Shown here: piece by piece, positions 38,321 through 42,836 of the stretch
Layout of the letters: each line of letters starts with the position of its first letter
Numbering within the stretch: the first letter of the stretch is position 1
DNA from: Escherichia coli
GTDB taxonomy: Bacteria > Pseudomonadota > Gammaproteobacteria > Enterobacterales > Enterobacteriaceae
Assembly (NCBI RefSeq): GCF_046105845.1
Contig: NZ_CP151004.1
Direction: 5' to 3' (one strand)
DNA: 64,000 nt
Made by a program: the position numbers and the translations under genes
The notes under the pieces: model-generated
What the model saw: the letters and a program-made list of their open reading frames with translations, nothing else
Told to the model about the DNA's origin: nothing
Databases searched by the model: none

Positions 38321-38480
38321 TGCGACGCTGATGCGTCTTTTCATGCCTACAAAATATGCCCGAATTGTAGGCCGGATAAGGCGTTTACGCCGCATCCGGC
38401 GGTTATGCGCTGATGCCTGATGCGGCGCGGGCGCGTCTTATCATGCCTGGAAGTCTGCGCCCGAATCGTAGGCCGCCTCC
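38321..38480. repeat. Cluster of REP/BIME palindromic elements
   Basis: Several copies of the ...gccggataaggcgtttacgccgcatccggc... family directly after ybbJ, at the left edge of the inserted region. Confidence 0.65.
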
Positions 38481-38504
38481 GCTATATTAACTGGCATTGG
38501 CAAA

Positions 38505-38867
38505 TTACTCGTCACTACCTTTATTCATGTTTTTTTGGTCTTCATCCGGATAATGTTTTTTTAGATATTCCAGGACGTTTTTATTGACCTTGTGTTGCGT
38601 ATACACCCACCCTTTCCAGTAATCAGGCTGGTCCAGGTAAACTTCTGGCGGAATGGTGAAATCAGAAAGCGTTAACCATTCGGCTAACAGATCGGGGTTT
38701 CGTTTCTGGATTAACTGCAACAGCATAATCAGTGACATAGCTGAGGCAGGAGCCGTACTATCACCACTCAAATATTTCCACACTGTTGACCGGTTCGAAC
38801 GAAAAAGGATCGGTAGCAATGCCCGGTCCAGATTCATTTCATTAAAAATCTTCTCAAATTCATTCAT
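38505..38867 (-). CDS. Hypothetical 120-aa protein, possible HTH-type regulator
   Basis: ORF with SD-like aggaaa 8 nt upstream of ATG at 38867; segment LLPILFRSNRSTVWKYLSGD resembles a helix-turn-helix. Divergent from the autotransporter gene across a 366-bp AT-rich region. I do not recognise the family. Confidence 0.45.
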   Translation of the reverse strand: MNEFEKIFNEMNLDRALLPILFRSNRSTVWKYLSGDSTAPASAMSLIMLLQLIQKRNPDLLAEWLTLSDFTIPPEVYLDQPDYWKGWVYTQHKVNKNVLEYLKKHYPDEDQKNMNKGSDE

Positions 38868-39233
38868 TTAAATTTTCCTGCCTGGCGTAAACCTCTTAAA
38901 AATTGAGATTTATCAAAGAAACGCATTTTAGCACACATCAGGAACCGCTTCACGTTTAGTTCAGAAACAGAATTTATTTCGCTTATCAAAACAAGTCTTT
39001 ACTCTTTTTTACATTGAAAGAGCACAAAATGATTTTCTATTTTATTTATATAAGAAACATTTTTTGTTTCTTATTGGTGGTGTTTACGCTTACACCAGAC
39101 AAAAATGCGCTTTACATCACACAAATGGCGGCGTAGATTTCGATCAAATTGCAACGCAGATTAATTCTTATAACAACGTTTTACGTTGCTTATAGAAACA
39201 AATATGTGACTTACTTTGAAAGAGAAAAAATGC

Positions 39234-42125: not shown

Positions 42126-42210
42126 TATTCCAATCCTCAATATAAATAAGAGCAAGGAAGCTTGCCGGGTTTCACCTCTTCATTAATTTGTACATTATTT
42201 AAGGTTAACA

Positions 42211-42633
42211 ATGATGAATAGTTCCATTAAATCGTTTTCCCTGCTGGCGGTTATATTACTGGCTGGCTGTAGTTCACCCACTTCCCGCATCGCAGATTGC
42301 CAGGCGCAGGGCGTCAGCCATGACACCTGTTATCTCGCAGAACAACAGCGTCAGACGGCTATTTTAAGTGCATCCGAGGCGCAGGCATTTAAAAATGCAG
42401 AAGCCGCACAACATGCCCAGGCGGCAAAGAAAGCCATTTATAAAGGATTTGGCATGACCTTTAGAATGAGCAGTAAGAACTTTGCTTATCTCAATGATTC
42501 ATTATGTGCAATTGATGAAGACAATAAAGATGCCACTGTTTATCAGTCAGGTCTTTATAACGTCATTGTTTATCACCACACGGGAAAAGTCGCCTTAATG
42601 AAGGAAGGTCAGTTTGTGGGTTATTTAAAATGA
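42211..42633 (+). CDS. Putative lipoprotein (140 aa)
   Basis: Signal peptide with lipobox LLAGC, Ser at +2; 85 bp downstream of and co-directional with the autotransporter gene. Confidence 0.6.
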   Translation: MMNSSIKSFSLLAVILLAGCSSPTSRIADCQAQGVSHDTCYLAEQQRQTAILSASEAQAFKNAEAAQHAQAAKKAIYKGFGMTFRMSSKNFAYLNDSLCAIDEDNKDATVYQSGLYNVIVYHHTGKVALMKEGQFVGYLK

Positions 42634-42833
42634 AGGAGCAAAGGAAAATCCCCCTGACGCATATTATGATTATCGGTGCGTTTATTTTTGCCTTCTTGCA
42701 AGTGGTGTTATTAGCCTCCCTGGTTCACGCTGTGAATGTTAACAATGAAATCCAGGAAGGCTTATTTCAATCGGGGCGCATAATGGTAGAAAGTTTGCAG
42801 CATATTCTTTCGGTGCAAACGGGGATTAACTGA
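42630..42833 (+). CDS. Putative small single-pass membrane protein (67 aa)
   Basis: Start overlaps the lipoprotein stop (ATGA); hydrophobic segment IMIIGAFIFAFLQVVLLASLV; stop lies 3 bp from the convergent cueR stop. Confidence 0.4.
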   Translation: MKEQRKIPLTHIMIIGAFIFAFLQVVLLASLVHAVNVNNEIQEGLFQSGRIMVESLQHILSVQTGIN

Positions 42834-42836
42834 TTT

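Follow-up and report, generated by a model that had tools for sequence, protein, structure and literature searches.

An island between ybbJ and cueR of Escherichia coli, matching O-island 29, probably encodes a headless trimeric autotransporter with a repeat-built stalk

A four-gene insert between ybbJ and cueR

The 64,000 nucleotides of Escherichia coli DNA analysed here (contig NZ_CP151004.1 of assembly GCF_046105845.1; hereafter, the window) contain an insert of 4,516 bp between ybbJ and cueR (38321-42836), for which the list of open reading frames (ORFs) gives four genes, encoding proteins of 120, 963, 140 and 67 aa. We focus on the 963-aa protein, very probably an outer-membrane protein of the type Vc (trimeric autotransporter) class, and on the island that encodes it, which is O-island 29 (OI-29) of O157:H7. 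An earlier note, made from the sequence alone, had described an insertion of about 4.5 kb with four genes splitting two genes that are adjacent in K-12, and the comparison with K-12 MG1655 agrees with that description. In the window, ybbJ stops at 38320 and the stop codon of cueR, on the minus strand, starts at 42837, whereas in MG1655 the ends of the two genes, 514400 for cueR and 514401 for ybbJ, have 0 bp between them. When the K-12 junction is aligned with both edges of the window, K-12 picks up again exactly at 42837, and on the left the two sequences part ways in the last eight or so codons of ybbJ.

The left edge of the island, immediately after the ybbJ stop codon, is formed by a cluster of repetitive extragenic palindromic (REP) sequences and bacterial interspersed mosaic elements (38321-38480). 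The cluster was read from the sequence and is matched in Rfam by the REP-derived naRNA4 family (71.9 bits over 38370-38447, where the gathering score is 59.5), which bears out the REP cluster reported in the earlier note; the Rfam scan returned nothing else. The same note had found no integrase, transposase or tRNA at the edges, and indeed neither enzyme appears in the ORF list of the insert, and no tRNA was detected in positions 30000-50000. On these grounds, a mobile-element origin was rejected. The high-identity 'plasmid' matches of the lipoprotein gene of the island are all mislabelled chromosomes, and no phage match was obtained for this protein.

The island has already been published. 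By sequence, the insert is OI-29, because its z0638 and z0640 orthologues are 97-99% identical to those of O157, because the 963-aa protein matches O157 GmrA (z0639; BLASTP 2e-127; 75% of the last 255 aa and 46% of roughly the first 150 are identical), and because the arms used for the published gmrA deletion, placed by their primers with 0 mismatches on O157 (L004:4548-4586 and 5604-5641), border the 338-aa GmrA ORF exactly. The gene also has the location expected of the z0639/gmrA orthologous group, namely, the ybbJ-cueR slot with z0640 and z0638 as neighbours. The gene itself was known (z0639 in O157, Ec042-0536 in enteroaggregative E. coli (EAEC) 042), as was its class, under the RefSeq name 'YadA-like family protein'. 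The novelty implied by the earlier note was therefore too high, given that the island is published, the autotransporter is listed for EAEC 042 and the short allele bears the name GmrA. What is new here is the longest allele of the gene, in a subfamily whose members had not been studied as surface proteins, and a published function that is at odds with the sequence.

The island was found in 1,416 of 5,426 complete E. coli genomes, counted as genomes with the C-terminal part of the autotransporter gene together with the two downstream genes, and in every case it was chromosomal. Carriers include O157:H7, O55:H7, O145:H28, EAEC 042 and B2 lineages of extraintestinal pathogenic, avian pathogenic (APEC) and neonatal meningitis E. 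coli (UTI89, RS218 and APEC O1), and it is missing from K-12 and about 74% of genomes.

Architecture of the 963-aa protein

The autotransporter ORF lies on the plus strand (39234-42125). It opens with a Sec signal peptide of 23 residues (MKTVKLSLLAVVVATAVSPSAFA followed by GD; 39234-39302), in which we read an n-region with K2 and K5, a 12-residue hydrophobic core, an A-x-A motif and an AFA/GD cleavage site, a plan kept across alleles. An N-terminal tip, delimited by sequence comparison, comes next (39303-39530) and comprises a conserved segment of about 52 aa (aa 24-75) and a Pro/Thr/Gln-rich linker (aa 76-99). The tip segment is rare: a search of 1.84 billion proteins yielded just 11 representatives at E<=1e-3, and all the full-length relatives retrieved through it finish in a sequence that reads as a YadA-type anchor.

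Five tandem repeats of 369 bp (123 aa; 39531-41375) make up the bulk of the predicted coiled-coil stalk, which continues in a non-repeated C-terminal part (aa 708-903; 41355-41942) common to the short GmrA allele and recognised by its heptads and its 75% identity. Heptad periodicity is marked both in one repeat (z=3.8) and in the C-terminal stalk (z=4.5). After register assignment, the core positions are occupied mostly by I36/V32/A24 at a and A43/N18/L17 at d. Cores with I/V/A at a and A/N/L at d are typical of the stalks of trimeric autotransporters and of the Braun lipoprotein Lpp. The protein contains 17 motifs of the N-at-d type ([ILVM]xxNxxx[ILVMA]), three per repeat unit. Each unit holds an unbroken run of about 12 heptads, and since 123 residues equal 17 heptads plus 4, the register breaks in each unit. 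A weak Alanine_zipper (Lpp) match in Pfam recurs once per repeat (E about 0.02, not significant), and a single repeat searched against the PDB gave weak, non-significant matches, all of them to trimeric coiled-coil fibres (reovirus sigma-C, paramyxovirus F HR1 and phage gp26). Matches of the long protein to Rad50, SMC, Hfq and DfrD in NCBIfam, far under the cut-offs, were set aside as compositional or coiled-coil noise.

The last 60 residues (aa 904-963; 41943-42125 with the stop codon), ending in GVGYSF and thus with an aromatic residue in last place, form a YadA-type membrane anchor according to Pfam, phmmer and beta periodicity. YadA_anchor (PF03895) matches over its full model (1-60 of 60, E=8.1e-11) and is the only significant Pfam domain of the protein, the period-2 hydrophobicity expected of beta-strands reaches z=3.5 in this segment, and phmmer matched no PDB chains in sequence other than the AtaA and Hia membrane anchors (E 9e-7 to 2e-4). 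None of the head, neck or stalk families in Pfam (YadA_head, Hep_Hag, HIM, Trp-ring, GIN and YadA_stalk) matched even at E<=10. Head modules are common in trimeric autotransporters rather than obligatory, so their absence fits the 'headless' minority exemplified by NadA and HadA and does not by itself argue against membership of the class.

The account that the earlier note gave of this protein thus stands in all its parts: a Sec signal, a YadA-type anchor now supported by an HMM match, no recognisable head motifs, and a passenger that is nearly all coiled coil, rich in Q, A, N and D (A 18.2%, Q 11.0%, D 9.7% and N 9.3% of the whole protein) and built on five near-identical 123-aa repeats. Every defining feature of trimeric autotransporters that can be assessed in a sequence was found, namely, a YadA-like anchor, an N-terminal Sec signal and, leading into the anchor, a heptad-patterned stalk whose core is of the trimer type; in plan, the protein belongs with the headless minority dominated by coiled coil. 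From these features, we infer that it trimerizes and is exposed at the surface.

Repeat number and allelic variation

Tandem Repeats Finder reported a period of 369 with 4.9 copies, 98% matches and a score of 3511 (39531-41352), with units starting at 39531, 39900, 40269, 40638 and 41007. The five units differ pairwise at 1-23 of 369 nt, units 3 and 4 being 1 nt apart, and all are in frame and free of stop codons. Among the 5,426 complete genomes, the repeat unit is present in 350, in 1-4 copies (median 2), and these are the same 350 genomes that carry this type of tip; the short O157/APEC-type allele was found in 1,031. With five copies, the window allele is the longest form seen. It can be described as an allelic variant of the 338-aa GmrA with a 608-aa repeat insertion, as the repeat block is missing from GmrA and the tip (aa 24-75) is 67% identical between the two. 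The nearest complete genome, AST215 (99.2-99.6% identical), has four repeats and encodes 840 aa, EAEC 042 belongs to the same allele class with three repeats and 717 aa, and the gull isolate 64A:C (L008) combines a 100% identical lipoprotein with an autotransporter allele of two repeats.

A count above the maximum of complete genomes invites the explanation that the gene is real and the fifth copy an assembly artefact, the true allele having four copies or fewer. Units that differ by a single nucleotide, such as 3 and 4, are liable to be miscounted when short reads are assembled, and the closest relative has four. The units are nevertheless not identical, some differing at up to 23 positions, which argues against simple duplication by an assembler, and an independent assembly in ENA (P0001) encodes a 962-aa relative with five copies, one of them a divergent hybrid unit. 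We regard an artefact as unlikely, though it deserves more weight than the other alternatives discussed below.

On the minus strand, each repeat also contains an antisense ORF of 114-122 aa and another of 56 aa (39566-41386). These many antisense ORFs of 56-122 aa almost certainly arise as side effects of an A-rich coding strand that is repeated, because identical copies necessarily duplicate any open frame.

The start that RefSeq/PGAP assigns to the coding sequence (CDS) in repeat-type genomes is an internal Met, located in the last repeat that contains one, giving a protein of 350 aa (EAEC 042, L001:8140-9189; AST215, L010:2808-3857), so that the DNA for the signal peptide, the tip and most repeats lies outside annotated features in most of the 350 genomes. 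This truncated annotation conceals the protein from surfaceome and vaccine-antigen screens. It might also be taken as a sign that the gene is a decaying or silent remnant without function in this strain, its repeat expansion being neutral junk. The few genomes in which the locus has an insertion sequence or a split ORF (IS1397 in 7CC, IS1A in SCU-172 and two CDSs in BEC1-S17-ESBL-09), an AT-rich promoter region that could be silenced by H-NS, a link that we infer, and the absence of the island from K-12 and most other genomes could be read in the same way. However, no break interrupts the full ORF in the window or in the two relatives checked, EAEC 042 and AST215, where the short CDS reflects the call of a start site and no frameshift, so that a pseudogene in related strains, which the earlier note had named as grounds for abandoning its proposal, was rejected. 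Moreover, the five repeats have stayed in frame without a stop, and the short allele is transcribed in O157 (96 reads per kilobase per million; PMC5826968, suppl. Table S3).

The pattern of substitutions points in the same direction. Nei-Gojobori estimates of the ratio of nonsynonymous to synonymous divergence (dN/dS) between the window and O157 are well under 1 in every region of the autotransporter gene and in all three accessory genes: 0.12-0.18 in the anchor (dS about 0.2-0.3), 0.17 in the stalk (dS at least 1), 0.06 in z0640 (dS 0.22), 0.02 in z0638 (dS 0.15) and 0.04 in the 67-aa ORF (dS 0.15). Together with the intact frames, this purifying selection makes a functionless remnant a very improbable reading. 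Synonymous divergence is at least 1 in the signal peptide, tip and stalk and low (0.15-0.28) in the anchor and accessory genes; therefore, the exposed part has the behaviour of a variable cassette that recombines. It would be an old cassette within a conserved frame, which is the usual pattern of surface antigens.

The published function of GmrA

The gene has a published function of a different kind. In O157, Yang et al. (2018; PMC5826968) named z0639 GmrA and described it as a transcriptional activator that binds fliA. In that work, deletion of gmrA or of OI-29 lowered motility, flagellation and the transcripts of fliA, fliC and motA, gmrA on its own complemented the motility defect, His-tagged GmrA shifted the fliA promoter in an electrophoretic mobility shift assay (EMSA), chromatin immunoprecipitation with quantitative PCR (ChIP-qPCR) gave a 7.75-fold enrichment at that promoter, and the motility phenotype was seen again in eight strains. 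Two reviews restate the assignment. If it were correct, the 963-aa protein would be a long variant of a cytoplasmic protein that turns on flagellar genes from the fliA promoter.

The published primers (PMC5826968, suppl. Table S2) bracket exactly the 338-aa YadA-anchor ORF, MKTVNVAL...GVGYSF: the cloning primers start with ATGAAAACTGTAAACGTAGCTTTA (MKTVNVAL) and the FLAG primer anneals on the codons of ...GVGYSF. The ORF that was cloned as an activator thus opens with a Sec signal peptide and closes with a YadA anchor, which is under purifying selection and, when GmrA is searched by itself, is again the only significant Pfam domain (E=2.6e-11). No DNA-binding domain was significant in GmrA in Pfam and NCBIfam; the closest are a coiled-coil match to TMF_DNA_bd (E=0.16) and NCBIfam matches to SMC (22 bits against a cut-off of 567), DndD and Rad50, likewise sub-threshold coiled-coil noise. 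Such matches may be the source of the published 'putative DNA-binding domain'. By primer design, the pET-28a construct for EMSA retains the signal peptide, and the construct for ChIP has a 3xFLAG right after the terminal Phe. An N-terminal vector tag (if present) or a C-terminal FLAG is expected to mislocalize an autotransporter. The island, furthermore, has its own predicted helix-turn-helix (HTH) protein in z0640.

Our analysis does not dispute the motility phenotype or its complementation, which may be real and reflect an indirect effect. Taken as a whole, we consider it quite improbable that the protein is the cytoplasmic activator described, hardly less so than that it is a remnant, and the assignment, which goes back to one functional paper and two reviews and conflicts with the signal peptide and the YadA anchor, merits re-examination. 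Among the papers that could be searched, none links GmrA with an autotransporter or a YadA anchor. In describing the EAEC 042 genome, Chaudhuri et al. (2010; PMC2808357) placed Ec042-0536, together with one other protein, in the trimeric (AT-2) class of autotransporters, and they saw 'no clues to the function' in the literature.

Neighbouring genes and the divergent promoter region

Upstream of the autotransporter gene and divergent from it, the 120-aa protein (38505-38867, minus strand) is the product of the z0640 gene in the published naming of OI-29 and is 97% identical to its O157 orthologue. Its AlphaFold2 model has a mean predicted local distance difference test (pLDDT) score of 88.6, and the top Foldseek matches of this model in the PDB are all HTH proteins of the XRE type (HigA2, P2 C repressor, Aca2, C.Esp1396I, the C-domain of MqsA and lambda repressor), at non-significant E-values of at least 0.23 and with TM-scores to the target of up to 0.68 over 63 columns. 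In Pfam, a weak match to the HTH of MqsA_antitoxin (E=0.12) was the only one. On the strength of the model, this predicted XRE-type HTH protein is the best candidate of the island for a DNA-binding protein.

The divergent region between the two genes (38868-39233) is AT-rich (33-37% GC), in composition a regulatory region, and an inverted-repeat scan identified in it a perfect 10-bp inverted repeat, ATAAGAAACA-N5-TGTTTCTTAT (39050-39074), as a candidate operator. Promoter and terminator scans gave counts no higher than in shuffled sequence and were uninformative. The promoter region has a mean identity of 96% among the window, O157, APEC O1 and 042, and the divergence of the alleles sets in about 80 nt upstream of the autotransporter ATG.

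Downstream, the z0638 orthologue (42211-42633, plus strand) encodes a 140-aa putative lipoprotein with the lipobox LLAG/C, 99% identical to that of O157. A Ser at position +2, as is present here, predicts sorting to the outer membrane under the +2 rule. The protein has two conserved Cys residues, and its predicted structure combines a long helix with a beta-barrel domain of 8 strands at the C-terminus, the latter modelled at a pLDDT of about 90. The last gene (42630-42833, plus strand), whose start overlaps the lipoprotein stop codon (ATGA), encodes a 67-aa protein with one transmembrane segment, predicted to be a single-pass membrane protein. Its identity of 98.5% to the O157 homologue and its low dN/dS indicate that this short ORF is a real gene. 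Only 3 nt lie between its stop codon (42831-42833) and that of cueR (42837-42839), which is convergent with it. Separate terminators would not fit into this space, so the two transcripts must either overlap or end at a common bidirectional signal.

The module at other loci and the other side of cueR

Pseudocitrobacter, Rahnella and a metagenomic enterobacterium also have, at different loci, homologous modules of an HTH gene, an autotransporter gene and a lipoprotein gene, in some cases with the small protein. In the metagenomic contig (L012:3138-5671), genes for a 111-aa HTH protein, a 363-aa YadA-anchor protein, a 156-aa lipoprotein and a 67-aa protein lie between fetA and qmcA instead of ybbJ and cueR. 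Homologues of the 67-aa protein come after the lipoprotein both there and in Pseudocitrobacter faecalis (L005). The latter genome has two tandem autotransporter genes, of 633 and about 590 aa (L005:2801-6532 and 9050-10936), and a large serine recombinase gene 1.5 kb downstream suggests that the module of this species lies within a mobile element. The homologue of Rahnella sp. AA (L007:6001-7722) has an in-frame, HTH-like N-terminal extension (..NKSELARYFGVSASTIRRVL..) directly before a segment resembling a signal peptide, which could be either a start-site miscall or a real fusion.

Enterobacter asburiae has an autotransporter and lipoprotein pair near thiM/thiD, and in Klebsiella aerogenes, a lone lipoprotein homologue adjoins thiM/thiD, the same neighbourhood. 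Lipoprotein homologues (42-48% identity) without a YadA-anchor gene nearby were found in four of nine contexts (L009, L011, L013 and L014). The lipoprotein was accordingly rejected as an obligate partner of the autotransporter; it is a frequent one, as the family also stands alone.

Beyond cueR, the window contains a type I secretion locus on the minus strand (43241-63996), with an HlyD-family adaptor (43241-44416), an ABC permease/ATPase (44413-46575) and an unbroken ORF of 5,805 aa for a giant BapA/SiiE-like adhesin, siiEA (46579-63996); in O157 WS4202 and EAEC 042, siiEA carries the annotation of a pseudogene with a frameshift or a stop. With OI-29 on one side and this locus on the other, cueR is flanked by two variable surface-protein islands.

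Proposed mechanism and role

If the protein is a trimeric autotransporter, as we think very probable, the 23-residue signal peptide would route it through Sec, and the last 60 or so residues would contribute four beta-strands per chain to a 12-stranded trimeric barrel inserted by the beta-barrel assembly machinery (BAM). The remainder would then be exported, zipping in the C-to-N direction to give a rod of trimeric coiled coil that carries three small N-terminal tips on flexible Pro/Thr/Gln linkers and no globular head. At 0.148 nm per residue, a stalk of about 800 residues would measure roughly 118 nm here, against about 27 nm for the 338-aa O157 allele, and each 123-aa repeat would add about 18 nm. 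Because a unit of 369 bp is in frame, unequal recombination would alter the length without a frameshift, and because length varies with the repeats, their number would set the distance at which the tip projects. One may speculate that this allows the tip to reach beyond O-antigen or capsule. The divergent 120-aa protein is a likely local regulator, and the lipoprotein and the 67-aa membrane protein would be co-transcribed partners.

By analogy with other autotransporters dominated by coiled coil, the likeliest roles are adhesion, aggregation and the binding of host serum factors. Several points weigh against our interpretation. The repeat count exceeds anything in the complete genomes, with an error of repeat assembly in the source being possible; four of the nine lipoprotein contexts have no autotransporter; the only published functional data place the short allele in the cytoplasm, at the fliA promoter in EMSA and ChIP; and complete deletion of OI-29 in O157 left adherence to HeLa and Caco-2 cells unchanged (PMC5826968). 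A simple role as an epithelial adhesin is therefore unsupported for the short allele. Aggregation and the binding of matrix, serum factors or immunoglobulins are possible roles.

A broader proposal, which we put forward tentatively and rate well below the class assignment itself, is that OI-29 might be a self-contained surface-fibre module, made up of an XRE-type regulator, a headless rod whose length is adjusted by gain and loss of 123-aa repeats, an outer-membrane lipoprotein and a small inner-membrane protein. Under this proposal, the name GmrA would be misassigned, the motility effect would follow indirectly from the loss of an envelope protein, and the lipoprotein and small protein would be an undescribed kind of type Vc partner, acting in assembly, tethering or signalling.

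If the product is a surface-exposed trimeric fibre, it would be an antigen of major pathogens that awaits characterisation, and possibly an adhesin or a factor in immune evasion, encoded in about a quarter of complete E. coli genomes, and its variation in length between strains could alter its exposure through capsule and O-antigen.

Comparison with known systems

The closest relatives are the alleles of the same locus. GmrA/z0639 of O157 shares with the window the ybbJ-cueR slot, z0638 (99%), z0640 (97%) and the promoter region (96%), as well as the plan of signal peptide, tip, coiled coil and YadA anchor with 75% identity over the last 255 aa, but it has 338 aa, lacks the 123-aa repeats and is just 43-67% identical in signal peptide and tip. 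Ec042-0536 of EAEC 042 is nearer: it carries the same 123-aa repeat, is 94% identical in the tip and 99% over the C-terminal 255 aa, and differs in having three repeats and 717 aa rather than five and 963 aa.

UpaG/EhaG, Saa and Eib, the trimeric autotransporters already characterised in E. coli, belong to the same secretion class and anchor family; unlike them, the window protein has no head, neck or YadA_stalk domains, and it is encoded at another chromosomal locus. Kinship to the passengers of Eib, UpaG, SadA and NadA was rejected, as there is no PDB sequence match outside the anchor, chains of EibD, SadA and UpaG-type fragments included. Salmonella SadA, reportedly described by Grin and colleagues in 2014, is said to be a trimeric autotransporter with a dedicated lipoprotein helper, SadB. 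The arrangement is alike in that a trimeric autotransporter gene forms an operon with a gene for a small lipoprotein. The lipoprotein of the island did not show fold similarity to SadB, and a SadB-like helper role is not supported. Lpp resembles the repeats in its Ala/Ile/Val-rich a/d core and through the weak Alanine_zipper match in each of them, which is not significant, but it is a periplasmic lipoprotein of 58 residues and not an exported passenger.

In general plan, the nearest known proteins are NadA of Neisseria meningitidis and HadA from Haemophilus influenzae biogroup aegyptius, both of which consist of a signal peptide, a passenger that is nearly all coiled coil with a small N-terminal elaboration at most, and a YadA-type anchor. 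The likeness is one of architecture: the E. coli protein has two to three times their length, long tandem repeats and a Pro-rich linker below the tip, and showed no detectable sequence similarity to them, NadA chains in the PDB being unmatched at E<=0.01 by the full protein and at E<=10 by one repeat. Structures of NadA3 are available (PMC6191539), and HadA appears in the title of a work in the reference list of PMC3417366 as an 'atypical trimeric coiled-coil adhesin'. The repeats of the window protein, of 123 aa, would form the stalk itself, and in this it differs from Cha, a protein from the Haemophilus cryptic genospecies.

Cha reportedly has short repeats and a binding head. It is likewise a trimeric autotransporter that varies in repeat number, and according to Sheets & St Geme (2011), as cited in PMC3417366, the number of its tandem peptide repeats modulates activity, which provides a precedent for such variation mattering.

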